IMG/VR virus record: IMGVR_UViG_3300029305_002985 | Location: 4,092-68,091 of that record | Strand: one strand, 5' to 3' | Source: a virus | Length of the DNA: 64,000 nucleotides | Shown: one piece after another, positions 2,913-28,746 of the stretch | Numbering within the stretch: the first letter of the stretch is position 1 | How the letters are laid out: each line of letters starts with the position of its first letter | Notes under the pieces: generated by a model | Databases searched by the model: none | What the model saw: only the letters and a program-made list of their open reading frames with translations | Told to the model about the DNA's origin: nothing | Made by a program: the position numbers and the translations under genes

Positions 2913-4708
2913 TATTTACTTTCGCCCACTATCTCATAATCTTCAATAAACACCTGCGGCGTCACCCATCCATTCCACTCATTAGCGTTGCACTTACCAA
3001 CGATGTTGAGTTCGACATATCCGCTGGTGTTAGAAAGTGTATCGCAGAGATCATCTGGAGCGTCGAATAGCATAAGGGATACCCTGGACGGGAGGGTAAT
3101 CTTGAGGGTGTTGTTTTTCTTAACATAGACATTAACCATGTCTTTTGATACTCTAATAGATTCCACTGCGACAAGAGCTTCATCAATATCCTTACCTTCC
3201 AAATCGGCCAATCGGGCAATGTCAAGGATTTGTTCTCCATCTACGCTCACTCCTTTATAAATATAATCTACATAATATACAGGCTCTTCTGACATATCGC
3301 GCAAAGCGAGGTCTGTGGCGGCAATGAACTTGTCAATATTGTACTCTCTGATACCAATGCCGAAAGCGCCTTGGTGTCCAGCTACAAATGTTGTAAGCTC
3401 AGTCGCTTCACATAAATCTTTAAATTCGGTGACACCTGCAAGATCGCATCCGCGCGCACTTCCTTGATATACTATATTATTAAATTGTATTAATGGGTTG
3501 CCTTTACCATCAAAAGCAGTCATTGGGATTTCAGTTTTAGTGAGAATACAACAAGGTCTTTGATACTTAGCCATAAATTTATTCGCAACAAGGCCCGCTA
3601 CATTCTTATCAACCTCACCAGGCTCAAGCAAGAATAACAAGACTTTATGATCAAGCAAGTTTTGCTCTTCAATCATAGATTCAAGCTTCTTAAGTGTAGC
3701 ATCTTGAACCTTGGTCTGGCGCGCTTTTACATTAGCGGCAACGCGCACTGCTTGCGTTACTAAAGATTCTGTCTCTCCTGCTTTATGCCCGCGCTTTGTA
3801 GAAGGGATGATATTATGAGCCTTGAATTTTAAGAAAGATTTAAACATAAGTTCTTTTTCATCAGCCTCGCCACTACGCACCATTGCATTAACAAAAGGCG
3901 CGATATAGAAGGCGGCGCCCATAGGGGTGATTTTATCACCGAGTGAAAAAGCATTGCGCTCAGCCATTGAGTAGATGAAGGGATTATGGATGTTTTCCTC
4001 TTGAAAACCCTTCATAATTAAATGCTTTGTTTCAAGAGAACGCATCGACATCATATCTGCGGTATTGCCTAAAGCTACTAGGTCTAGGTAATTATTCGCA
4101 TAGTTAGCGCCAAGCAGATGATCCAGGTATCGACAGAATTGCCAAGTAATACCTGCGCCACTAAATGACTTATTCGGATAATCACAGAGTTGATTGTTGA
4201 TGATAATTGCGTTAGGTGAAATAATCTCTGCTTCGTGGTGGTCAAGCACCAACACATTGACGCCTTTTTCGATAAACTTCAAGTGATATTCATAGTCATT
4301 TGAAGATGCGTCAGGACAGATGATTAATGAGTATTTTGCGGCGGTTGAGTCTACATCAACATCGCTCAAGCCGTGTTGTTTGCCGCTATGGATGAACCAA
4401 TCTAGGTTATTCTGAACCCACGCGGGGAATAGATCGTAGAGATAATTGATTAAGAGTGCGGCAGAGGTAAACCCATCGCAGTCACAATCAACGATTACAA
4501 GCGCGCGTTGGTTAGCATTCATAGCGCCAACCAAAACTCGTGCTGCTTTTAAGAGGCGGTCGCCGCCAAGTTTCATAAAGTCATTTATATCAGCATCTGT
4601 TGTATTGAGCCAGTGCTGGATTTCAGATCTAGCTATTCCGCGGTTTGTTAGCACTTGCTCTAGTGCGGAATAGCTAGGGTTAATTGGATTTATTAATTTA
4701 TATTTCAT
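2903..4708 (-). CDS. recJ: DHH-family phosphoesterase, RecJ-like ssDNA exonuclease
   Basis: DHH motifs VIVDCDCDGFTSAA, LDHHEAE, and DHHA1-like C-terminal region. Confidence 0.8.
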   Translation of the reverse strand: MKYKLINPINPSYSALEQVLTNRGIARSEIQHWLNTTDADINDFMKLGGDRLLKAARVLVGAMNANQRALVIVDCDCDGFTSAALLINYLYDLFPAWVQNNLDWFIHSGKQHGLSDVDVDSTAAKYSLIICPDASSNDYEYHLKFIEKGVNVLVLDHHEAEIISPNAIIINNQLCDYPNKSFSGAGITWQFCRYLDHLLGANYANNYLDLVALGNTADMMSMRSLETKHLIMKGFQEENIHNPFIYSMAERNAFSLGDKITPMGAAFYIAPFVNAMVRSGEADEKELMFKSFLKFKAHNIIPSTKRGHKAGETESLVTQAVRVAANVKARQTKVQDATLKKLESMIEEQNLLDHKVLLFLLEPGEVDKNVAGLVANKFMAKYQRPCCILTKTEIPMTAFDGKGNPLIQFNNIVYQGSARGCDLAGVTEFKDLCEATELTTFVAGHQGAFGIGIREYNIDKFIAATDLALRDMSEEPVYYVDYIYKGVSVDGEQILDIARLADLEGKDIDEALVAVESIRVSKDMVNVYVKKNNTLKITLPSRVSLMLFDAPDDLCDTLSNTSGYVELNIVGKCNANEWNGWVTPQVFIEDYEIVGESKYCF

Positions 4709-12327: not shown

Positions 12328-13563
12328 TTACTTATTTCCTTTCGTTTTATTCAGTCCAAAATCTTTAGTCTGATACATATCAATATATGTTCTTTCTTTC
12401 TCATTTAAATCTGCGGCCGAGCATACTTCTAACACTTCAAAGGTAAAGTTCTCAATACCTTTTTCTCTTGTGAAAGCATAAAGCTGGCTGGTAACGGGCG
12501 TATCAATGCCAAGAGAACATTTGATATGCTCAATCCAACGATCTTTGATATTGCGGGCTTGGCCTACATAGGAAAGACCTGAGTCGATATGTGTAATTTT
12601 ATAGATGCCACACGCGCCAACTGCGCCCGCGCGATTAGCAAGATCATTTGCTCTATCGCGGTAGAAAGTAGACCAGATAAGCATACGCAAAGGTCTCGGC
12701 TCACGTAAATTATGCTCAATACTACGCAGATACGATATATCGGTTTTATCCGCTTCGCTAATCTGTAATGTGTAATATGTAGCATTTTCTTTGATTTGTT
12801 GTTCGCGGAGCTGCGCTTCTAATGCGGCAGCCTTGGTTGCACGGATTTTATCTAACTCTGCACGAGTTGCAGCTAGCTCTTTCTCTAAGTCTGTCTGTAA
12901 TGTAGCATATACCTCGGTCAGCCGCTTGGTAAGAGCTTCATGCTCTTTAATAATATCTTCTTTAGACGCGGCAAGCAGATCCTGTTGCTCTGCATAAACA
13001 GATTGAAGTTTCTTTTCTAGTTCATCATATTCTCGCTCTAGATTTTGCTCTTCTAGCTCGAGATTGTCTGCGTATTGCTCAAAGGCGTTACGCAGTATTT
13101 CCTTCTCTGACTCTTGCTTTTCGGCAATGGCAAGGTTGAGTTCGTTAAGGCGAGCAGTTGCCGCTTTTTGTTGACGCGCGACGGTTTCTTCAGTTTCCTT
13201 GAGTCGGATCATTGCATCATCTTGTTGTCGATTAATAACTTCAAGTTTTGCCTATTCACGCTCAAAAACTACTATTTGTTGATGACGGCTGTCTTTGAGT
13301 TTTTCTATTGCATCATTTAATTCATTTTCTGTAATTTGTTTAATTTGTATAGTTTTTTCTAATTGTGCGCTTTCTTGCAAAATTTTTGCTTGATTTTGAA
13401 GTAATTCAGAATTTCGTCTGTGAATTCCTTCTTGTTCTTGTAAAAGTTGCGCGTTCTAACGCTCGATCTCTGTGTCTAGTTGCTTTCTCTTGTGCCAGAT
13501 AAAGGCGGCAAAACCTAGACTGCCGCACGCCGCCAAGACACATAAAATACATACTATAATCAT
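12328..13563 (-). CDS. membrane-anchored coiled-coil protein with C-terminal GIY-YIG nuclease domain; two in-frame TAG codons (13252-13254, 13456-13458)
   Basis: N-terminal TM helix MIIVCILCVLAACGSLGFAAFIW, ~300 aa of heptad coiled coil continuous across both TAGs, C-terminal GIYKITHIDSGLSYVGQARNIKDRWIEH; ORF track truncates it at 13212. Confidence 0.65.
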
Positions 13564-16468: not shown

Positions 16469-16876
16469 TTAGTGCTTTGCGCCACCTAGCTTATCTGCCC
16501 ATGCCTCTGTATAGAACCAATAGTAAGATTTGTTATGCTTTTCTCTCCAACTATCGAAGAAGCCTGCCCAAATCAGAGAGGGGATACCGATAACAAAGAG
16601 ATAAAGTGGACCTAAATAAGCACTCTGAACGCTATGCCCATATTCGTGCTTAATATAGTTTTGTTGCCATTCGGTTTCTTTTTCAGGGTCATAATAGAGG
16701 AATCCAGCCTGCGGAAGGAAGATGTGACTACCAAGCGACATACCGCCGCCATTCTTCCAACGATAGAGCTTTACTCCTTGATATTCTCCGATCAGTTGAC
16801 CGGAGAATATCCAGATAACTACTAGTGCAACGAGGTTCTAAAGCAACTCCCAAGTCCAGTTTTTGGCTTGTTTCAT
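16469..16876 (-). CDS. membrane protein with one in-frame TAG (16838-16840)
   Basis: ATG overlaps gyrA stop (ATGA); MKQAKNWTWELL[TAG]NLVALVVIWIFSG... continuous with annotated 16469-16741 ORF. Confidence 0.55.
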
Positions 16877-19215: not shown

Positions 19216-21106
19216 ATTGCGCCTCCTTACTGTGATCTTGGATATATTTCTTTCTCGGTGCCACGCCAGTTCCCATTAACTGGTCAAATAATACATCTGC
19301 GGTTCTAAGGTCATCAACTGTAACCTGGTTTAAAATTCTTTGAGTAGGGTCTACGAGGATTTCAGTCTCCTCCGCGCTCATCTCACCAAGACCTTTGAAG
19401 CGGCTAATCGTATATTTCTTGCCAACATGAGACTTGGTAAATTCTTCAAGAGCTGCATCATCTTTAATATACACATAAGTGTCTTTGCCGATTGTAGCCT
19501 TATACAAAGGTGCCACAAGAGCATATACATAACCTTCTTCGATTAACTGCGGACAGAAGTTCCAAATAAAGGTGTAGAACAGATTGCGAATATGCGAACC
19601 GTCTACATCTGCGTCCGCCGCGATAATGATCTTACCATAACGCAAATCATCTTCATCATAGGTGAGCTTCATAGTCTTAGGATCGACGCGGAGACCAAAT
19701 GCCTCAATCATAGTCATAATTTCTGCATTCTTTTGCACCTTGTCAAGCGGCGCCTTTTGGGTATTAAGAATTTTACCGCGGACAGGCATAACCGCCTGAG
19801 TTTCATTATCTCTTGCTTGCTTTAGGTTTCCAGATGCGGAATCGCCCTCTGTTACATAAATCTCACATTTGCTTCTGTCTTTAGAGTAGCAATCTGCAAG
19901 TTTACTGTCGAACTTAAGAGCCTTTTCTTTCTTCTTCTTTTCTCCACGAGCCTTGTCTCTTGCGTTCTTTGCGGCCTCGCGCGCCTTTCGTGCGGCAAGT
20001 GCCTTATCTGCAATAGTTTTGATTTCTTTCTCGTTCGCCGCAAACCAATAGCCAAGCTCTTCTGTAAGAGCCTGAGTAAATGGACTCATATTGATCTTGG
20101 TAATTGTGCTCTTGACCTGTGCATCATAAGATACATTCGGCGCGGTGATATTGAATACGATATACATACCCTCTTGGATATCATCACCAGAGAGGTTTTC
20201 GTCTTTTTCTTTTAACCACTTCTTATCACGGAAGAACTTGTTGAACTCACGGGTTAACACAGTTTTAATCTGCGTGATATGCGGGCCTTTTTCGGTAAAG
20301 CCCGTATTTACATAGGGAACAAGAGTTGACGAGTAATTGCTTGTATAGGTAAGGATAAAGTCCATCTTCTCCTTGCCTTCTGCAAAATTCATAGAAAATC
20401 TATTATTGATTATTTCTTTATCTTTTACTGCTTTATCTGCTAAATCATTTAATCCACGAGTTGAATGATAAACAGTTTTTTCCCCATTATCGTTAAGATT
20501 GATGGTAAGTCCAGGACAGAGACAAGTGATTGTTTCAAAAAGAGAGTGGATCTTGGATATCTCTACCTCAGGATGAGTGAAAAATTCTTCACTTGGAGTC
20601 CAAGATACAAAAGTTCCATGCCTGCTTTTATCACAGTTTTCAACAAAACGATTATCAAAAACGCCCTCTTTAAATTCTACTATTTCACTAACACCTTCTC
20701 TCCAGGTTGTAACTTGTAATTGGTGAGATAAAAAAGTAGTAATTTTTGATCCAATACCAAAGCTACCGAGAGAGGTTCCTTCATAAGTTCCGTCCTCGCG
20801 GTATTTACCTGAAGTATTAAGCACAGAGAATGCGGCTTCGAGAATAGTTTTTCCATCGTCTCTAAATTCATTAGCTAAAAATCCTTGACCTTCATCTTTA
20901 ACATAAACTTTTGCGCCATCAATAGACACATCGATCTGATTACCATGGCCTAGTCTAAATTCATCGACCGAGTTTGAGATAATCTCAACCAAAAGCTGGG
21001 TTGCATAAGTGGTATCACCTGCATACACACCAGGTCTAAGTCGAGTAAACTCAAGAGGTGACAAACTCTCAATCGAATCTTTGTTGTATAATTTATTATC
21101 TGTCAT
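19205..21106 (-). CDS. gyrB: type IIA topoisomerase subunit B (GyrB/ParE-like)
   Basis: GHKL ATPase motifs, TOPRIM EGDSA, PLRGKILN. Confidence 0.9.
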   Translation of the reverse strand: MTDNKLYNKDSIESLSPLEFTRLRPGVYAGDTTYATQLLVEIISNSVDEFRLGHGNQIDVSIDGAKVYVKDEGQGFLANEFRDDGKTILEAAFSVLNTSGKYREDGTYEGTSLGSFGIGSKITTFLSHQLQVTTWREGVSEIVEFKEGVFDNRFVENCDKSRHGTFVSWTPSEEFFTHPEVEISKIHSLFETITCLCPGLTINLNDNGEKTVYHSTRGLNDLADKAVKDKEIINNRFSMNFAEGKEKMDFILTYTSNYSSTLVPYVNTGFTEKGPHITQIKTVLTREFNKFFRDKKWLKEKDENLSGDDIQEGMYIVFNITAPNVSYDAQVKSTITKINMSPFTQALTEELGYWFAANEKEIKTIADKALAARKAREAAKNARDKARGEKKKKEKALKFDSKLADCYSKDRSKCEIYVTEGDSASGNLKQARDNETQAVMPVRGKILNTQKAPLDKVQKNAEIMTMIEAFGLRVDPKTMKLTYDEDDLRYGKIIIAADADVDGSHIRNLFYTFIWNFCPQLIEEGYVYALVAPLYKATIGKDTYVYIKDDAALEEFTKSHVGKKYTISRFKGLGEMSAEETEILVDPTQRILNQVTVDDLRTADVLFDQLMGTGVAPRKKYIQDHSKEAQYGV

Positions 21107-21392
21107 TATTTTCCTCCTTTAATAGCCTTAGATCGGCATCTCCCTCGCAAAAGACAACTCCGCCATAGCTTAATGAATTATCAATAATAACCTTATGATT
21201 TTTATAACTATTTATTTCAGATGACCGCTTATCTTCAAAAGTAAGAATATCATAGGTTGATTTATTCATCTTTAAGATAGTGCTTTTTTTTCTGTAAGCA
21301 TCTTGAATAGTTAATATTTCATCAAATATCCAAAAGATATTATAGCCTGACGCCTGTATTTTCCCATTTTTAATTTTAGGTTCTACTGTCAT
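21096..21392 (-). CDS. hypothetical protein
   Basis: 98-aa ORF. Confidence 0.45.
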   Translation of the reverse strand: MTVEPKIKNGKIQASGYNIFWIFDEILTIQDAYRKKSTILKMNKSTYDILTFEDKRSSEINSYKNHKVIIDNSLSYGGVVFCEGDADLRLLKEENNDR

Positions 21393-21429
21393 TTAGTCTT
21401 TTTCTCCTTTATTTTTATTTTATATACAT

Positions 21430-21458
21430 ATTATAACATATTTTTTATAAAAAATCAA
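21430..21458 (-). promoter_or_regulatory. conserved phage promoter module
   Basis: attata-17-aatcaa. Confidence 0.65.
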
Positions 21459-21462
21459 CAAA

Positions 21463-21481
21463 AGAGCCACGAAGTGGCTCT
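21463..21481 (-). terminator. terminator hairpin
   Basis: agagccac-gaa-gtggctct + T-run. Confidence 0.55.
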
Positions 21482-21495
21482 TTTGAAATGTCTTA

Positions 21496-21975
21496 TTAAA
21501 TCATTGGCACAATACCGTGATTTTTTTGTAAAAACGCTTGATAATCTTGCTCTAATTTATTATCTAAATCATATCCTGTTTTTAGATTAAAAAATTTGAT
21601 AACTGTTTTCATGCCACTTTTATATTGCTTTTTTGCATTCATTACCATCAAAAAGTGACTACCTAATAAATAAGCTCTACAACGAAAGTCCGCGCTGCCG
21701 CCAGTTTGTGCTCTCATATTATATCCATTTAAATAGGTATTATAAACATGAATCCAATATTTTTCTCTTTGATTAGCCTCTTGCAGTGTAGGGATATTCT
21801 CTTCTAAAATTTCGTGGGTAAAGTTCTGCCAACCCCATAGAGTAATGGCTAAATTAAATAAAAACTGTGTTTTGTATCCTTTACCGTTGGCCCAGCGGGC
21901 TTCAGGCTCTTTAGAAGTTTGTCCTATATAACATTTTCCAGTGGGACTTGTATGCTTATAAATACACCAACTCAT
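21496..21975 (-). CDS. GIY-YIG domain protein (homing-endonuclease-like)
   Basis: N-terminal CIYKHTSPTGKCYIGQTSKEPEARWANGKGY. Confidence 0.6.
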   Translation of the reverse strand: MSWCIYKHTSPTGKCYIGQTSKEPEARWANGKGYKTQFLFNLAITLWGWQNFTHEILEENIPTLQEANQREKYWIHVYNTYLNGYNMRAQTGGSADFRCRAYLLGSHFLMVMNAKKQYKSGMKTVIKFFNLKTGYDLDNKLEQDYQAFLQKNHGIVPMI

Positions 21976-22005
21976 TCATATTCTCTCCTTTGCTTTTATA
22001 TTATA

Positions 22006-22034
22006 ATTATAATATAATTAAATTAAAAAATCAA
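22006..22034 (-). promoter_or_regulatory. conserved phage promoter module
   Basis: attata-17-aatcaa. Confidence 0.55.
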
Positions 22035-22103
22035 TAAGGGCGCTTTGAATTAATCAAAACGCCCTATCAGAAAGGAAGGTAATTATATTATATCAAAAAT
22101 TTT

Positions 22104-22604
22104 TTATTTTGTCAAGCCGTGCTTCATTCTAAGTGTTGCTTGTAATCCGCAAATCATTGCATCTATTTGTAGTTTAATCATTGGTAAAGTTTTTGCAGAA
22201 ATACCATCGTGGAAAATCGGACAATAGGCTTCGTTAAGCGCAGTATCTTTTCTATTCTCATAATACCATAAAGCAAAGGCATCTTGAACGCGCTCAAGAT
22301 ATTCGATCATATGCTGCGCAGAGTCTGGATCGCCGCAATCAAACATACTTAAATCGCAATCAAAATAATACATATCTGTTGCTCTATTGTAATATAAAAT
22401 AGCATCATTCAAACTTTGGAAAGATGCAATTTGTGGTTGACCTCTTGCAGGAAGCGCCCAGATAAATTTGTTGTCAAGATAATTAAATTCATCATCAACC
22501 CAGTCGCTATACATCTTTTTACAATATCTCTTTCGTTGATTATATTTGCGGCTCTCAGTGCGTAGTAGTCGCTTAAGCCAACGATTAAATTTGGATTCTT
22601 TCAT
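22104..22604 (-). CDS. hypothetical protein
   Basis: 166-aa ORF. Confidence 0.5.
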   Translation of the reverse strand: MKESKFNRWLKRLLRTESRKYNQRKRYCKKMYSDWVDDEFNYLDNKFIWALPARGQPQIASFQSLNDAILYYNRATDMYYFDCDLSMFDCGDPDSAQHMIEYLERVQDAFALWYYENRKDTALNEAYCPIFHDGISAKTLPMIKLQIDAMICGLQATLRMKHGLTK

Positions 22605-22639
22605 CTATATGTTTCTCCTTTTGAGCAGATAAAATTCTT

Positions 22640-22736
22640 TGGCGGCCCCTCTGGGATTCGAACCCAGATCTGCGCCTTCAGAGGGCGACTTATTGCTGAT
22701 TTAGAGTCAGGTGTTCTACCATTAAACTAAGGGGCT
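22640..22736 (-). tRNA. tRNA-like gene, candidate amber suppressor tRNA-Sup(CUA); 97 nt with CCA end
   Basis: acceptor AGCCCCT/AGGGGCC, U8, D-arm GTTT-AATGGTA-GAAC, hairpin CCTGA-CUCUAAA-TCAGC (anticodon CUA with U33, A37), second hairpin CGCC-CUCUGAA-GGCG, T-arm CTGGG-TTCGAAT-CCCAG. Confidence 0.6.
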
Positions 22737-22752
22737 ATTTCTTTATATCTAT

Positions 22753-22781
22753 ATTATAATAAAATTTTCAGTATAAGTCCA
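22753..22781 (-). promoter_or_regulatory. promoter-like element upstream of suppressor tRNA
   Basis: minus strand TGGACT/17/TATAAT. Confidence 0.4.
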
Positions 22782-22803
22782 CTCAATGCAGAAAAGAGGC
22801 TCT

Positions 22804-23313
22804 TTAATCAAGAGCCTCTGTTACCATATTGATATTATAATCTTCTATCATCGCAAGAAAGTTTTTCATATTTCCAGTTGCCAGCGCATCAGCAAGCTCA
22901 TTGCCAACAACTTCAGAGTGTCCGGGACACTTCTTAATAACTACATTAAAGAAATCGCGCGAGAGATAGCCATAGATTTCTTTCATTAGGTCAAGATTTT
23001 CAACTGTCTTTTTCTTACTATTGACCCAACCATTTTTTGCCCAGTTCCACATCCATTCATTACAAGCGTTGACTACATACGCAGAGTCGGAGTAGATGAT
23101 AAATTGCGTTTCAGGGTGGTCCGCCGCATACATAAGCGCACAAATCATTGCGCGAAGCTCCATCTGATTGTTGGTTGCATTTGGGATCTGATTGTGGTGG
23201 TAATAGTGAAGAAGGTTCATTTCAGTTTCATCAAATACTAGCATTCCCCAGCCGCCAATGCCGGGATTACCTCCTTGCGCGGAGCCATCTGTAAATATAA
23301 AGTGATTAGTCAT
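22804..23313 (-). CDS. rnhA: ribonuclease HI
   Basis: FTDGS...ELRAMICAL...YSDSAYVVN...WAKNGW motifs. Confidence 0.85.
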   Translation of the reverse strand: MTNHFIFTDGSAQGGNPGIGGWGMLVFDETEMNLLHYYHHNQIPNATNNQMELRAMICALMYAADHPETQFIIYSDSAYVVNACNEWMWNWAKNGWVNSKKKTVENLDLMKEIYGYLSRDFFNVVIKKCPGHSEVVGNELADALATGNMKNFLAMIEDYNINMVTEALD

Positions 23314-23914
23314 GCATTAAAGTCTCCTCTCTTGCGCGATATTCGCCACAGATGTGTCTATACTTTTGTTCAAGTTGGTGATACTCAAATTTCTCCATTG
23401 GATCAAAATTGCACTCCTCCATCTCCGCAAGGTCTGCAAGAGTGACAGAGATAAACCACTTAACGGCAGGATGCATCTTCAAAGGTTTCTCTGCTTTTGC
23501 CTTCCACCACTTGTATTCTGCGGCATAGGAGAAGTTCTTACCTATATACGCACGGCCGGCGCCAAGATAGTCACATAGAAGCTCAAGTACATCGTCGAAA
23601 GGCATAAGTAATGCTTTGCCGCCGTTATCAAGGTTGTCTACCCAAAACTCGTAATGATGTCTATTGCGTCCTTTGTGGTGCATCCATGCTTTAGACCAAC
23701 CTTTATCTTTCTTTGCGGCGTCGATAGGGGAAGAAGTGCCCTGATAGTATCTTACGCTTTCCCAGAACTCGGTAGGAGAAAATTTGGACATATCGTGCCA
23801 AATGCCGCGCCAAGTGATACCAGCCTTGCGGCAATAGTGGAATACCCATCTTTTGTGAGTGCAAATCTTATGAAAATGCGCGAATATATTTTTAATTTTT
23901 ATGCGGGGTGCCAT
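23306..23914 (-). CDS. hypothetical protein
   Basis: 202-aa ORF. Confidence 0.5.
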   Translation of the reverse strand: MAPRIKIKNIFAHFHKICTHKRWVFHYCRKAGITWRGIWHDMSKFSPTEFWESVRYYQGTSSPIDAAKKDKGWSKAWMHHKGRNRHHYEFWVDNLDNGGKALLMPFDDVLELLCDYLGAGRAYIGKNFSYAAEYKWWKAKAEKPLKMHPAVKWFISVTLADLAEMEECNFDPMEKFEYHQLEQKYRHICGEYRAREETLMHD

Positions 23915-23958
23915 TAAAATTCCTCCTCTGTGGTTTAATCCATTTTTATTACATTATA

Positions 23959-23987
23959 ATTATAACATATTTTTTGATAATTTTCAA
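23959..23987 (-). promoter_or_regulatory. conserved phage promoter module (-35 TTGAAA)
   Basis: attata-17-tttcaa. Confidence 0.55.
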
Positions 23988-24047
23988 ATGGGCTTCTAAA
24001 AATTAGAGTTCAAAATCAAAGAGGACGCCGCGAGGGCGTCCGCTGAT

Positions 24048-24356
24048 TTATTTGCTTTGAATATATTCGTTAATTGCGCCCTTGGACTCAGCTAAAGTTT
24101 GCATTTTATTAAGTGCTTCATCAACCATTTTAGAGAATAGATCAAAAGATATCCACATACGCAGAACGGGGAACTTTTCCAAGAACTGATCATATACTAC
24201 GCGCAGTTTGAGAGCACCAGTGTCAGAACCGAGCCGCTTCTCTGCTTCGATCACCGCAAACAGAAGCCACTCTTTTGCATTTTTAACTCCAAAGAGGGTT
24301 AATACTGTCAAAATGCCCAACACTGCGGCAATAATTAATGCTATAATCCACCACAT
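24048..24356 (-). CDS. hypothetical membrane protein
   Basis: N-terminal TM helix. Confidence 0.45.
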   Translation of the reverse strand: MWWIIALIIAAVLGILTVLTLFGVKNAKEWLLFAVIEAEKRLGSDTGALKLRVVYDQFLEKFPVLRMWISFDLFSKMVDEALNKMQTLAESKGAINEYIQSK

Positions 24357-24853
24357 TACTCTTCACCCCCTGTCTTATGCAAGTCACCAAGCTTTTTATC
24401 TCTTGAAAGAATTAGCTTATGATAGTTGTTACTCAGCTGATTAATATTATACTTGCATACATCAATATCTTGACGCAGCTTAACCATCTTTTCGCCAAGC
24501 TTCAACATGGGGAATGAATACCCGTTAAAGTTGCGCGTATCCATCATCTCTGCGAAGAAGTCTTGCAGCCCTTTAAGTTCCGCGCGAAGCTCCCTCAGCC
24601 GCATTTTCTCTGCCTTTTTAAGTGCCTTGATTTCCGCAAGTTCGCATCCGAAATACTTGCTCGGATACTCTTCATTAGCGCGCATCTGAACTGTTGCAGA
24701 AAAATTGCCATATCTGGTTGAAATCTCTACCATAGAGACGCCGGTTTCTTCGTTATAATTTGAATTTTTCAGTTTATACTTCATTGGATACCTCCTCAAA
24801 ATGCGTATCTTTAAAAATTTGCCATAGTCTATTGATTTCGTGGCAGTTATCAA
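24356..24853 (-). CDS. hypothetical protein
   Basis: 165-aa ORF. Confidence 0.5.
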   Translation of the reverse strand: MITATKSIDYGKFLKIRILRRYPMKYKLKNSNYNEETGVSMVEISTRYGNFSATVQMRANEEYPSKYFGCELAEIKALKKAEKMRLRELRAELKGLQDFFAEMMDTRNFNGYSFPMLKLGEKMVKLRQDIDVCKYNINQLSNNYHKLILSRDKKLGDLHKTGGEE

Positions 24854-24883
24854 TAAACCACATCATCATCGGGATTATAATAT

Positions 24884-25459
24884 TCATTCTACCAAATCCT
24901 CCTTTTCATAAAGCAACTCTTTGCAGCGCTCCATTTCCGCCTTGATATCAGCGATAACTTGATCCATAGATACGGGGTATCCGTCGTGACTGTCAACACC
25001 TACATGGTAAATATAAGGATTACCCTTATAGAAATTGCCCGTCTGATGCGTGTGTCCATAGAGGCACAGGTTCGTCTCCCAGATATTCTCTACATTCAGG
25101 TTGGTTCCATCAGTAGGAAAATGCGAGAGATAAAAATTGAGCTTCTTATACTTAAAACGGGCGGCGAGCTGTACATCGAAGCCAAGCTCGTTATACAACT
25201 TCTCTCTTGTTCCCGTATCATGGTTGCCAAGGCAGATATGGATCTTACCATTGAGCTGCTTAACACACTCGATACCCTTTTCGCGGTCGCCGAGCATCAA
25301 ATCGCCCAGAATCCAGACTTCATCTTCCGGGCCTACGACTTCGTTGAATTTGCGAATTTGCTCTCTGTTCATTTCCTCGACATCCGCATAACCGCGGGCG
25401 CCCCATACGAACTCTCTATCGTGTCCAAAATGCAAATCACTTGTTACAAAAATTGCCAT
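24884..25459 (-). CDS. calcineurin-like metallophosphoesterase
   Basis: DLHFGH...GDLM...GNHD...GHTH motifs. Confidence 0.8.
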   Translation of the reverse strand: MAIFVTSDLHFGHDREFVWGARGYADVEEMNREQIRKFNEVVGPEDEVWILGDLMLGDREKGIECVKQLNGKIHICLGNHDTGTREKLYNELGFDVQLAARFKYKKLNFYLSHFPTDGTNLNVENIWETNLCLYGHTHQTGNFYKGNPYIYHVGVDSHDGYPVSMDQVIADIKAEMERCKELLYEKEDLVE

Positions 25460-25962
25460 TACGCTTCCACTTCCTTTCTAATTACCTTTTCTTCAGGTGA
25501 TACTTCAATAATAGTATTATAAATATACTTGTCCTCTTGAAACTCAGGAGGCTCCATCTGGTAAAACATTCTTTTGATAACCGAGGGCGGCACATATGCG
25601 CGAGTGCCTTTACGGTTTTCATTGCGTTCAAGCGCCACTTCGCAAGGGGTATTCATCCAAACCAAGTCAATGCAATCGAGTTTGACAGGGATTGCGCGGA
25701 GTAGCTTAAGACGCGAAGATTTAGTCAAATGAGTTGCGTCAACCCATACAGTTGCGCCACTCTTGAGCTGCTTTACAATGCGCTTGATAAAAGTATTAAA
25801 TACTTCTCCTTCGTGAGAGAAATACTCTTCATCTTCGCGCACAATAGAGAAGCGCACTTCATCGCGTGAAACATATTCATCAAACGCGGGACACATATTC
25901 TCTTTTGCGTAAGTGCTTTTCCCCGAACCGGGGATGCCGCACATAAGAATAATCTTATTCAT
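25459..25962 (-). CDS. P-loop kinase, polynucleotide kinase (Pnk kinase-domain)-like
   Basis: Walker A MCGIPGSGKSTYA; size and context with phosphatase and RNA ligase. Confidence 0.65.
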   Translation of the reverse strand: MNKIILMCGIPGSGKSTYAKENMCPAFDEYVSRDEVRFSIVREDEEYFSHEGEVFNTFIKRIVKQLKSGATVWVDATHLTKSSRLKLLRAIPVKLDCIDLVWMNTPCEVALERNENRKGTRAYVPPSVIKRMFYQMEPPEFQEDKYIYNTIIEVSPEEKVIRKEVEA

Positions 25963-26449
25963 TCTTCAACTCTCCTTCGTAAAACTTATCAATAGCTTGG
26001 CAATATAGCCACTCACAAAAACCAACTTCGGGATCAGACTGAATGGTATGACGAGCGTGCTGTGGCAACATCTCGCTCACATCATCATCAAGGATCAGAA
26101 AATTTTCAACATCGGGGTGTTCATCAAGCCACATTTGAATTTCATGTCCGCGCCCGTAATTGGCGGCGGTCGGTGGCAGATGAATAGTCCGATCAAGGAT
26201 CAATGAGCTGTCCATGAGTCCGCCATGAAGCAGGCATTCGCGCCAGTTGCTATTAAGGCGCCAGTCAGAGATAACAACGATTTGAAAATTGTAAATCTGG
26301 CAAAATGCTTCTACCCATTGCACCGCATCACGATTATTAACTGCGCCGTGGTGAGGCATATTCATTGTGAACTCTTGGGCAACTGGATCCCACATAGGCA
26401 CATTTACAACACCATCGTAATCTAAAAACAGGATATTCATTACGCTCAT
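25955..26449 (-). CDS. HAD-like polynucleotide 3'-phosphatase-like protein
   Basis: N-terminal FLDYDGVVN (DxDG motif). Confidence 0.55.
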   Translation of the reverse strand: MSVMNILFLDYDGVVNVPMWDPVAQEFTMNMPHHGAVNNRDAVQWVEAFCQIYNFQIVVISDWRLNSNWRECLLHGGLMDSSLILDRTIHLPPTAANYGRGHEIQMWLDEHPDVENFLILDDDVSEMLPQHARHTIQSDPEVGFCEWLYCQAIDKFYEGELKNE

Positions 26450-27448: not shown

Positions 27449-27598
27449 TTATAAAACAGCCTCAATCGCCGCGAGTGCGTCTTGAATAGCTTCAAACTGT
27501 TCCTGTGTCAAATGTGGGTTGTTATCCCAAAAGAAGATTAAAGCCTGCTGAATAACAGCGACTTCATCCTCTAATAACTGCGGCTCATAAGTCATCCG
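27449..27598 (-). CDS. small hypothetical protein
   Basis: 49-codon ORF MTYEPQLLEDEVAVIQQALIFFWDNNPHLTQEQFEAIQDALAAIEAVL. Confidence 0.35.
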   Translation of the reverse strand, partial: RMTYEPQLLEDEVAVIQQALIFFWDNNPHLTQEQFEAIQDALAAIEAVL

Positions 27599-28746
27599 TT
27601 TAGCGCCTCCTCAATTCTTTCAGTGATTTCGTCAATAGAAAGTCTATCAAGCCACTCCTTCGCAGTGATATAATACTTGTTATCATATCTCTTGCAAAGA
27701 AAGTCGCAATAAGGAGAGTTCTTTACTGCCATATAGAAGTCCTTCTTTGATGCAATATTCATCGCGTTGAAGACATTCCAGTCGCACTCCATTTCTGCGG
27801 CGAGGGTGCAGCCAGCATCCTTGATTGCATTGACAAAGCCAATATAGTCCTCGTTATACGCGCAGAAGTCATCAATTATTTCCTCACGGATCAGTTTGAT
27901 TACCTTCTTTACATTAATGCTATTGTTAAAGCGCAAATGAGAGGCGATAAGATACTGCTCAGACTTGACCTTAACGCGATCAAACTTTGCATCGCACACA
28001 ACAAAACCTTCTTCGTCTGCGCCCATAAGCTTGGTTGCCGCAATGCAATCTTCAAGAGTATGCAAATAATAAGTCTTAGGGAACTTAATCATAGGACATT
28101 CGCGCCCAAAAGAGAGTTTATAGCGCTCAATGTCATGCTCTTTTCCAAATTGGTCGCGGATGCCGATCAAATAAATTGCGTCATCGGGATAGAGAATGGT
28201 CATGCGATTATCAGGAGATACAAGCTCAAACATATAAACGCAAGTCTTGTCAAGCCAAGCGAAGAAGTCTGAAGTAGAATAATTATTATTTCTACGCAGC
28301 GCGCGCAAAAATAGATCATAGTAGCTCAGCTTCATATTAGGCACATAAGCATAACGCGCGTCGATAGTGCCATTGGTAGAGATATGCCAGCCGCCATGAT
28401 ACCAAACTTTGATCAAAGAGCCGTCAACCTTTTCAGTTACTCTTGCGCTCTTCCAGTCGATCTCGGGCACATAGCTCTCGCCATAGTTTCCAAACTTATC
28501 AAAAGGATGACATACGCACTGATAACGCTCAGAGAGATTGTCGTAATACATGATACATCCTCTAGCCTCGCGGCAAAAGGCAAGGTTAAAGTCAGAGGAA
28601 AGCTGGTTATACTTCAAAAGGTAGTATGCACCATTGATTGCGGGCGCAGTGCTGATTTTGATGTTATAAGGCTCAGCAGAAAGAATCTTTTGCCAATCCT
28701 TCTTATGAGCGTTCATAAACTTAACAAGTTCCATTATATCATACAT
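27592..28746 (-). CDS. RNA ligase, T4 Rnl1-like
   Basis: nucleotidyltransferase motif I TEKVDGSL, motif IV EGFVV, motif V KVK. Confidence 0.7.
   Translation of the reverse strand: MYDIMELVKFMNAHKKDWQKILSAEPYNIKISTAPAINGAYYLLKYNQLSSDFNLAFCREARGCIMYYDNLSERYQCVCHPFDKFGNYGESYVPEIDWKSARVTEKVDGSLIKVWYHGGWHISTNGTIDARYAYVPNMKLSYYDLFLRALRRNNNYSTSDFFAWLDKTCVYMFELVSPDNRMTILYPDDAIYLIGIRDQFGKEHDIERYKLSFGRECPMIKFPKTYYLHTLEDCIAATKLMGADEEGFVVCDAKFDRVKVKSEQYLIASHLRFNNSINVKKVIKLIREEIIDDFCAYNEDYIGFVNAIKDAGCTLAAEMECDWNVFNAMNIASKKDFYMAVKNSPYCDFLCKRYDNKYYITAKEWLDRLSIDEITERIEEALNG

Follow-up and report, generated by a model that had tools for sequence, protein, structure and literature searches.

What use does a phage tRNA with the amber anticodon CUA make of a second hairpin that displays CUG, an anticodon of glutamine? 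The question is raised by a tRNA gene on the minus strand of a 64,000-nucleotide stretch of viral DNA (positions 4,092 to 68,091 of IMG/VR record IMGVR_UViG_3300029305_002985), which as a whole is referred to here as the window. The gene occupies 22640..22736, and the evidence below makes it very probable that its product is an amber suppressor that inserts glutamine. With respect to the two hairpins, comparison of sequences leads us to favour, to a modest degree, a division of function in which the first (arm 1) decodes UAG and the second (arm 2) would act as a pseudo-anticodon that confers glutamine identity.

The gene is called by ARAGORN as a tRNA of exactly 97 nt with anticodon CTA, and it matches the Rfam tRNA family RF00005 with 55.5 bits against a gathering score of 29 (full sequence, AGCCCCUUAGUUUAAUGGUAGAACACCUGACUCUAAAUCAGCAAUAAGUCGCCCUCUGAAGGCGCAGAUCUGGGUUCGAAUCCCAGAGGGGCCGCCA). 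It stands 15.6 kb from the main tRNA array of the window, a set of 30 tRNAs at 38366-50766 that also lies on the minus strand. A first-pass annotation of this DNA had proposed an isolated amber-suppressor tRNA(CUA) at this site and had named ARAGORN as a check; the proposal is upheld, as the program returned the stop anticodon and no sense anticodon. In the Rfam alignment, the first of the two hairpins is placed as the anticodon arm, and 24 nt are treated as an insertion in the variable region. The minimum free energy fold of the RNA shows all five helices, although its folding energy relative to shuffled sequences is not distinctive (z = -0.66) and is not used as evidence.

In terms of its parts, all given on the minus strand, the acceptor stem as read from the sequence consists of a 5′ strand AGCCCCU (22730..22736), in which A1 faces C72, and a 3′ strand AGGGGCC that is followed by the discriminator G73 and a gene-encoded CCA (22640..22650). 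The D arm (22713..22727) is of the class-I type, with a 4-bp stem GUUU/GAAC and the 7-nt loop AAUGGUA, and the T arm (22651..22667) reads CUGGG-UUCGAAU-CCCAG. U8, A14, G18G19 and the T-loop sequence GUUCGAAUC, which are expected of a tRNA, are all present, and these core nucleotides are invariant in the family alignment described below. The acceptor stem, D arm, T arm and CCA end of the earlier description therefore all exist, but to call the acceptor stem good is to overlook its A1.C72 mismatch.

Arm 1 (22695..22711), assigned as the decoding anticodon arm by ARAGORN and Rfam and formed by a helix that covaries, reads C-CUGA-CUCUAAA-UCAG-C, that is, 4 bp and a C27.C43 mismatch. Its 7-nt loop holds what an amber suppressor should have, namely U33, CUA at positions 34-36 (22704-22702) and a purine at 37, within the run A36-A37-A38. 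A single-stranded linker of 7 nt, AAUAAGU (22688..22694), leads from arm 1 to arm 2; in most members of the family described below this linker is only 1-2 nt long. Arm 2 (22673..22687) reads CGCC-CUCUGAA-GGCG and displays the glutamine anticodon CUG (22681-22679), followed by A. The 3′ linker CAGAU (22668..22672) has, with 5 nt, the length of an ordinary class-I variable loop, and the whole distance from the anticodon stem to the T stem is 27 nt. Two plus-strand features at the locus were rejected, a terminator-like match at 22673-22687 that is merely the complement of arm 2 and a spurious open reading frame. Within the window, an Rfam scan gave no family other than tRNA at its gathering score, and no ribozyme was detected beside the suppressor tRNA.

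The same tRNA is found, identical at 97/97 positions, in a sister contig (L268) at the same syntenic locus, between an RNase H gene and a gene for a 166-aa protein. The surrounding 2.8 kb is 93% identical between the two, a divergence at which ~7 differences would be expected in 97 nt and none is observed. The identity of the tRNA between flanks of only ~93% identity argues that it is under selection. Upstream, a candidate sigma-70-like promoter, TGGACT-17-TATAAT (22753..22781, minus strand; a match to the consensus only), ends 16 nt before the 5′ end of the tRNA, and both of its hexamers are conserved in the sister contig.

UAG as a sense codon in the window

Six genes of the window, all on the minus strand, require read-through of TAG to reach full length; together they contain 12 in-frame TAGs and no internal TAA or TGA. 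Specifically, these are a tail-tube gene (YomU_Tube, PF27173; 26541..27329) with one TAG at 27203-27201, which we list as a target of the suppressor; a GIY-YIG homing-endonuclease gene (52784..53671) with six TAGs and neither TAA nor TGA; a gene for a coiled-coil and GIY-YIG protein (12328..13563) with two (13458, 13254); a gene of unknown function for 135 aa (16469..16876) with one (16840) that is kept in the sister contig; another of unknown function for 218 aa (35531..36187) with one (35818) that is likewise kept there and has an Mtd_N-like segment downstream of it; and a 193-aa gene model (51226..51807), the weakest case, with one near its end (51285). Most genes of the window are intact under the standard code, and recoding is sparse, with 12 TAG against 430 CAA or CAG codons. 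Of the terminators in 50 gene models, 35 are TAA, 15 are TGA and none is TAG.

These TAGs are not products of decay, because they are kept, amid mostly synonymous changes, in relatives that have diverged from the window by 7-14% in DNA. A metagenome relative (L001, ~90% DNA identity) retains all six TAGs of the endonuclease gene, and about two-thirds of the sense codons that differ between the two copies are synonymous; for the sister contig, which is 86-93% identical to the window, the ratio of synonymous to non-synonymous changes is 1113:474. In the window, UAG is thus a sense codon. Published recoded phages show a preference for recoding in the genes of homing endonucleases and tail tubes (10.1101/2021.08.26.457843), and the window conforms to this pattern, since homing endonucleases and the tail tube are among its recoded genes.

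As to the amino acid inserted, the TAG of the tail-tube gene aligns with the Q of a TTVYAQGG motif, and this Q is invariant in 25/25 homologues down to 38% identity, two of which (P0121 and P0193) translate under table 11 as a check on the standard code. In the sister contig the codon at this position is CAA. An exchange in the opposite direction is found in the endonuclease gene, where the metagenome relative has a seventh TAG in place of a CAA of the window. A standard-code homologue of the endonuclease (P0003) has Q at 3/6 of the TAG positions, and two of these three are Q in ~15 endonuclease homologues. One further homologue (P0001), 95% identical and with Q at all six positions, was set aside as independent evidence, as its own gene has TAG and had been translated under code 15. 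Taken together, the alignments and codon exchanges indicate that the amino acid read at UAG is glutamine, so that the TAG-to-Gln recoding suggested in the first-pass annotation is borne out by 12 TAGs in 6 genes, by the invariant Q and by CAA/TAG exchanges in two genes. The features that characterise code-15 (TAG to Gln) phages are all found within the window, namely a TAG aligned with Gln, avoidance of TAG as a terminator and an encoded suppressor tRNA.

Phage suppressors of this kind are already known, and the window tRNA is ordinary in that respect. Glutamine was inserted by 28/29 phage tRNA(CUA) tested in E. coli extract (2025 preprint, PMC12636597), and CUA tRNAs are known substrates of glutaminyl-tRNA synthetase (GlnRS) (PMC12636597; 10.1101/2021.08.26.457843). 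As in the Lak, crAss-like and Agate code-15 phages (10.1101/2021.08.26.457843; PMC12636597), a phage tRNA(CUA) reads UAG as Gln in a standard-code host; in contrast to those systems, the recoding in the window is sparse, and a second arm with a sense anticodon is not described there. We therefore hold it to be very likely, though the charging itself is predicted, that the window tRNA is a Gln-inserting amber suppressor.

Its nucleotides agree in large part with this assignment. The identity set of E. coli GlnRS comprises a weak 1:72 pair, G73, G2:C71, G10, U35, G3:C70 and G36, and the window tRNA matches it at A1.C72, G73, G2:C71, G10 and U35. At position 36 the decoding arm has A, and only arm 2 supplies the G. 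The E. coli supE (glnV44) tRNA-Gln(CUA), which has 75 nt, a class-I body and a single anticodon arm, also has A36 and yet is charged with Gln; its acceptor end has a weak 1:72 pair, G73 and G3:C70. The CUA anticodon, the weak 1:72 pair and G73 are common to supE and the window tRNA, whereas supE is a point mutant of a cellular gene.

A long extra arm together with G73 is also what a tRNA-Ser would have, and ARAGORN labels the gene tRNA-Pyl. That the tRNA is a class-II suppressor (Ser, Leu or Tyr) or a pyrrolysine (Pyl) suppressor, with TAG meaning one of these amino acids, is nonetheless scarcely credible, as the TAGs align with invariant Gln and are exchanged with CAA. At 27 nt, the region between the anticodon and T stems exceeds the length that marks a class-II extra arm (>10 nt), but the D arm, with its 4-bp stem and 7-nt loop, is of class I, whereas a class-II D arm has a 3-bp stem and an enlarged loop, and the linkers of 7 and 5 nt on either side of arm 2 depart from the class-II form. 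With respect to pyrrolysine, tRNA-Pyl has a 3-nt variable loop, a shortened D loop and a 6-bp anticodon stem, and lacks G18G19 and the T-loop consensus. Membership in that group was rejected, given the D-loop GG, the GUUCGAAUC T loop and the 27-nt variable region of the window tRNA, and the ARAGORN label follows from the anticodon CTA alone.

The second arm in phage suppressor tRNAs

We scanned IMG/VR with patterns that fixed only the CUA loop and the T loop, leaving the arm-2 motif out of the search, and ran ARAGORN on the matches; the family counts given from here on are those among the matches listed, are lower bounds and are limited to the fixed loop and T-loop patterns. At least 39 unique tRNA(CUA) of 88-97 nt were recovered, mostly from phage contigs of 80-400 kb, of which 37 have a class-I body and 2 are genuine class-II (Ser/Leu-like) tRNAs. 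The tip of arm 2 is CUG or UUG, both glutamine anticodons, in 37/37 of the long phage tRNA(CUA) with a class-I body, and the next nucleotide is A in 36/37. Among the variable arms of ordinary Ser, Leu and Tyr tRNAs at the same loci, only 5/81 contain YUGA.

This constancy of the tip is accompanied by a wide diversity in the rest of the arm, with stems such as GCC/GGC, CUGG/CCAG, GUGGGG/CCCCGC, CACGG/CCGUG and UUCC/GGAG and with loops that range from a CUG triloop closed by U-A to the 7-nt CUCUGAA. In a MAFFT alignment of 34 members (A3), U57 and G58 of the arm-2 triplet (tRNA numbering) are invariant, and RNAalifold independently predicts five helices that include arm 2. All five helices covary; for three pairs of arm 2, the compensatory double changes number 11, 8 and 9, and 92.7% of cells are paired overall, versus 36-47% with slid partners. 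The tip of arm 2 is thus constrained to be a glutamine anticodon. The second hairpin of the earlier description, with its loop CUCUGAA one base different from that of arm 1, is therefore real as well as conserved and covarying; the 27 nt of the extra arm had been described as structurally unusual, and the length is correct, but it belongs to a conserved design of many phage suppressors rather than being an oddity.

The acceptor ends of the family agree with Gln identity. The 1:72 pair is never G:C in the family (U:A in 16, A.C in 9 and other weak pairs in the remainder; n = 37), and it is unpaired in 14/34 members of the alignment. G2:C71 is found in 31/37 and G73 in 27/37. When each body was scored by isotype, using nearest neighbours and per-isotype hidden Markov models, the best match was most frequently Gln (18/37), followed by Trp (12). 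The true class-II CUA tRNAs (L126, L132, L276, L336, L438 and L479) have a different shape and no anticodon-like CUG-A loop, the UUGA match in the first of them being due to chance.

If arm 2 displays the sense anticodon of the inserted amino acid, the extra arm of long opal suppressors, whose inserted residue is Trp, should contain CCA, a prediction that was set beforehand. A search for CUUCAAA loops combined with a long variable region yielded at least 27 unique long phage tRNA(UCA) of 93-100 nt (L140-L259, for example L249, L247, L179, L255 and L160). The extra arm contains CCA in 27/27 of these, with U before it in 26. In 14/27, the arm-2 loop is a 7-nt NUCCAAN on a stem of 3 to 7 bp (at least 5 bp in 13/14), and 8 of the 14 are exactly CUCCAAA, which is the anticodon loop of tRNA-Trp. 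The acceptor ends also resemble tRNA-Trp, with A1:U72 in 20/27 and G73 in 23/27.

The arm-2 motifs of the two groups are mutually exclusive, YTGA being present in 36/37 CUA and 0/27 UCA members and TCCA in 0/37 and 26/27. Fisher P values for this split range from 1e-18 to 1e-26 and are descriptive only, as shared ancestry is uncorrected. Some CUA and UCA members have nearly identical D and T arms; on similar bodies, then, a change of decoding anticodon goes with a change of arm-2 triplet. The UCA two-arm tRNAs occur on at least three or four tRNA bodies, some with class-II-like D arms. We define a two-arm suppressor class by a class-I body, a stop anticodon in arm 1 and a covarying 3′ hairpin that shows the sense anticodon of the inserted residue; the window tRNA, 37/37 CUA and 27/27 UCA members fit this definition.

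The likeness of the two arms had suggested to the first annotator a duplicated Gln-type anticodon arm of which one copy was mutated to read amber. The hairpins of the window tRNA are near-identical in their loops (6/7 positions), but their stems agree at only 3/10, which is the level of chance, and across the family the arm-1 and arm-2 stems of the same molecule are no more alike than those of different molecules. An origin by arm duplication is accordingly not supported, there being no sign of a recent event, although one may have taken place long ago. The likeness of the loops is explained by function, and stems as dissimilar as these would keep one arm from mispairing with the other. The possibility that one arm is spliced out or excised was rejected, given that joining the loops yields no complementary stem strands and that no intron signal is present.

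One could also take arm 2 for the real anticodon arm, with the molecule being an ordinary tRNA-Gln(CUG) into which a hairpin has been inserted, or one that decodes CAG in addition to UAG, and with no dedicated suppression. The secondary structure is identical under either assignment, and deletion of arm 1 in silico leaves a canonical 74-nt tRNA-Gln(CUG) according to ARAGORN. Across the families, the same deletion gives tRNA-Gln for 27/37 CUA members, the window tRNA among them, and tRNA-Trp for 21/27 UCA members, which means that arm 2 and the 3′ linker are sized as a normal anticodon arm and variable loop. Nonetheless, the genome needs a reader of UAG, both the covariance model and ARAGORN choose arm 1, and arm 1 has the A36-A37-A38 context typical of tRNAs that read codons starting with U. 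In addition, the arm-2 loop measures 3-6 or 8 nt in at least 17/37 CUA members, and stems of only 3-4 bp are frequent; arms of this kind would not be expected to decode on the ribosome. A scan for the reverse order, with the sense arm first and the CUA arm second, gave 8 matches, none of them a real case. An anticodon role for arm 2 is on this evidence very improbable. That the display of the triplet is conserved despite so varied an arm points instead to a protein reader.

Two tRNA(CUA) genes, one of 73-75 nt and one of the long two-arm type, are present in many phages (L010, L038, L039, L019, L021 and L025, and as adjacent pairs L008, L016, L017, L027, L028 and L041); in several the distance between the two is only 5 nt. 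Two contigs contain a tRNA-like gene of ~105 nt (L029, 13538-13599; L034, 359-420, minus strand) with a CUCUAAA loop and a 34-nt extra region that forms a GAGU-AUUAA-CUC hairpin; it has no YUGA tip and receives no ARAGORN call. Four phage contigs of 330-370 kb (L262, L263, L265 and L267) share a conserved tRNA-like sequence with a CUA-containing loop (CCUCUAAAA) and a CUGAC-GUGGAA-GUCAG hairpin in place of the D arm, also with no ARAGORN call.

A possible reader of the second arm

Which protein might read arm 2? The anticodon is a strong determinant for GlnRS as well as for tryptophanyl-tRNA synthetase (TrpRS). When tRNA is bound to E. coli GlnRS, the anticodon stem is reportedly extended by 32.38 and 33.37 pairs, with bases 34-36 splayed (Rould et al. 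1991). Several arm-2 loops in the family take the form of a CUG triloop with U-A and U.G pairs closing it, and a CUG triloop closed by U-A has the shape of the GlnRS-bound anticodon loop, a likeness that we count in favour of recognition of arm 2 by the synthetase. In our estimate, the chances that arm 2 serves synthetase recognition are even or a shade better.

The most likely course of events would be as follows. The tRNA would probably be transcribed from its own candidate promoter inside the replication module, at the time of the early or middle genes. Arm 2 would be read by the anticodon-binding domain of the Gln-charging enzyme of the host, either GlnRS or a non-discriminating glutamyl-tRNA synthetase (GluRS) followed by GatCAB. 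Acting together with the weak A1.C72, G2:C71 and G73, it would compensate for the G36 that the decoding arm has lost and thereby allow efficient and specific charging with Gln. On the ribosome, arm 1 (CUCUAAA), at the canonical anticodon position of a five-helix cloverleaf, would pair with UAG, and the suppressor would compete there with release factor 1 (RF1) to yield full-length products of at least five or six phage genes. These products would include the tail tube and homing endonucleases and might be timed to late infection. Such timing by recoding has been proposed for other recoded phages (10.1101/2021.08.26.457843).

To reach the anticodon-binding domain, arm 2 may displace arm 1 from beneath the D stem and stack there itself (arm exchange), or it may swing on its single-stranded linkers. 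Either movement is possible because the two hairpins are neighbours at the 26/44 junction, the 27:43 pair is weak and linkers flank arm 2; the two conformers share one secondary structure and are therefore indistinguishable by sequence analysis. At the top of arm 1, position 27:43 lacks a Watson-Crick pair, being G.U or mismatched, in 85% of 41 long CUA tRNAs (30/34 in the alignment, columns 30/46) and in 52% of the long UCA tRNAs, versus 25% of 1155 phage sense tRNAs. This weakness may provide flexibility at a hinge, or it may be linked to the effect of a short anticodon stem on the reading of stop codons. In Blastocrithidia, Kachale et al. 2023 reportedly found a tRNA-Trp that has a 4-bp anticodon stem and reads UGA by means of a near-cognate CCA anticodon. 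In both cases, stop-codon reading would thus go together with a weakened pair at the top of the anticodon stem, but the anticodon of the window tRNA is fully cognate to UAG, so that its weak 27:43 pair may serve hinge flexibility.

A number of observations weigh against a role of arm 2 in glutamine charging. The window tRNA itself has C3:G70 where the E. coli Gln identity set has G3:C70, and its body, scored with arm 2 removed and the anticodon masked, fits the Lys, Asp and Thr profiles best, not that of Gln. Arm 2 is heterogeneous, with stems of 3-6 bp and loops of 3-8 nt, and the family members are related by descent, so that the counts and Fisher P values overstate their independence. The host of the phage may be a member of the Bacillota, and many Bacillota have no GlnRS. 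Two-arm members were also found on contigs that had been binned with genomes of Bacillota and Acutalibacteraceae, and a relative of the phage of the window is among these contigs. Moreover, the tip of the variable arm lies far from the site of the anticodon-binding domain in a canonical L-shaped tRNA (Mukai 2020, PMC7590224), and for this reason arm exchange or linker flexibility must be assumed. Finally, ~80% of phage tRNA(CUA) in a mixed sample lack arm 2, the two-arm type making up about one-fifth of loci; as CUA tRNAs are GlnRS substrates and most in phages have no such arm, arm 2 is not essential for Gln charging in general.

The last two points, together with the intrinsic quality of CUA tRNAs as GlnRS substrates, favour a passive arm 2, a relic or a stabilising variable arm on a Gln-charged suppressor whose identity comes from C34, U35 and the acceptor end. 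A neutral relic, however, would decay, whereas here the triplet stays fixed through compensated changes in the sequence and length of the stem and in the size of the loop. The triplet also becomes CCA exactly when the decoding anticodon is UCA, and the motifs are rare in ordinary class-II variable arms. We therefore consider a passive arm rather unlikely.

Conservation in itself shows only that something reads the triplet, and a reader other than a synthetase, such as a modification enzyme, GatCAB or a phage protein, would account for it too, as would a function of arm 2 as a decoy for an anticodon nuclease or as a sponge that regulates a synthetase. The tRNA does lie near genes for a T4-like RNA ligase 1, a kinase and a phosphoesterase that resemble a tRNA-repair module. 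Against such readers, the triplet is matched to the inserted amino acid in the Gln class as well as in the Trp class, both of the corresponding synthetases use the anticodon as a major identity element, and no specific alternative partner is indicated. This explanation appears improbable to us, and we retain the synthetase as the preferred reader of arm 2.

Long extra arms that act as identity elements and are tolerated by the ribosome are familiar from class-II tRNAs (Ser, Leu, bacterial Tyr and Sec) and from the nev-tRNAs of nematodes. In those tRNAs, it is the length and orientation of the arm that are read, not a triplet at its tip, and class-II D arms and linkers of 1-2 nt are the rule; the window tRNA differs in its 4-bp D stem, its 5-nt remnant of a variable loop and the anticodon-like loop of arm 2. 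A closer parallel is synthetic. When a GUG (His) pseudo-anticodon arm was built into the variable arm of an allo-tRNA that suppresses amber codons, histidylation rose (Mukai 2020, PMC7590224), so that there, too, a hairpin in the variable arm shows the cognate sense anticodon while CUA decodes UAG. That design was based on a 9/3 allo-tRNA body and depended on a HisRS to which a second anticodon-binding domain had been fused, and the gain was modest (PMC7590224), whereas the window tRNA is natural, has a class-I body, concerns Gln (in the family, Gln or Trp) and would presumably be charged by an unmodified enzyme. Anticodon-arm mimics in mRNA, such as the thrS operator, are likewise recognised by a synthetase according to its identity rules (PMC9976931), but they reside in mRNA leaders and serve translational feedback rather than aminoacylation. 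No description of a second arm was found in full-text searches of the literature, the coverage of which was partial, or in the Borges et al. preprint (the principal survey of phages that recode), the 2025 functional screen and reviews of tRNA identity and non-canonical tRNAs.

More generally, phages might have arrived at a general solution to the problem of suppressor-tRNA identity, in which a non-decoding arm presents the host synthetase with a sense anticodon (CCA for Trp, CUG or UUG for Gln) and the first arm reads the stop codon, with the two arms perhaps exchanging at the 26/44 junction; on the sequence comparisons available, we would give this generalisation no better and no worse than an even chance. 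If true, the element read by the synthetase and that read by the ribosome would be separated within a single natural tRNA, which would help to explain why stop-codon recoding in phages is confined to Gln and Trp. How phage suppressor tRNAs are charged has been stated to be an open question (10.1101/2021.08.26.457843), and the conserved sense-anticodon arm is a concrete hypothesis that can be tested by mutation. The arm would also be a natural template for the engineering of efficient and specific suppressor tRNAs, an approach so far tried only synthetically (PMC7590224). In terms of annotation, programs that call isotypes and genetic codes, among them ARAGORN with its present tRNA-Pyl label, would need to recognise the two-arm architecture.

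Surroundings of the suppressor gene

The window is a segment of a large-phage genome with 43% G+C and with nearly all genes on the minus strand. The suppressor tRNA is flanked by an RNase H gene and the gene of unknown function for 166 aa, and it is enclosed by a module for replication and nucleic-acid metabolism that includes topoisomerase II subunits, an NAD-dependent DNA ligase, a DnaB helicase, a RecJ-like protein, a T4-type RNA ligase 1, a kinase and a phosphoesterase. Neither an aminoacyl-tRNA synthetase nor a release factor was found among the window proteins scanned. A megablast search of 20000-26000 against GenBank phages gave no match, and the nearest RNase H proteins are <42% identical.

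Within 6 kb of the suppressor tRNA, the phosphoesterase (Metallophos, 24884-25459), the KTI12/AAA_33-type kinase (25459-25962) and the T4-type RNA ligase 1 (27592-28746) form the set that resembles a T4-like tRNA-repair module. Directly upstream of the ligase gene is that of a sigma-70-family factor (28734-29732), which has regions 1.2 to 4 and was annotated via its orthologue in the sister contig. Three GIY-YIG homing-endonuclease-like genes are present, at 21496-21975, 12328-13563 and 52784-53671; the first adjoins the topoisomerase genes and has no in-frame TAG, and the other two are those with two and six.

The main tRNA array holds A34 anticodons that are unusual for bacteria, namely Ser-AGA (41387-41473), Leu-AAG (42068-42152) and Arg-ACG (50611-50684), as well as a tRNA (45390-45464) to which ARAGORN assigns a two-base anticodon, yet which scores 45.6 bits in Rfam. 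A repeat of ~40-45 bp, 89-97% identical between copies, lies between tRNA genes at 39510-39554, 44085-44129 and 45513-45550, and a fourth copy, deduced from the alignment, would lie at ~52.4 kb, downstream of the recoded endonuclease gene; the repeat may be a shared promoter or terminator element. Further genes are of kinds unusual for a phage. A protein of 835 aa (30732-33239) has an orthologue in the sister contig that matches MVP_shoulder, the shoulder domain of the major vault protein, with a faint match to Vault_3, and beside this gene a 502-aa Band_7/SPFH protein is encoded at 33964-35472.

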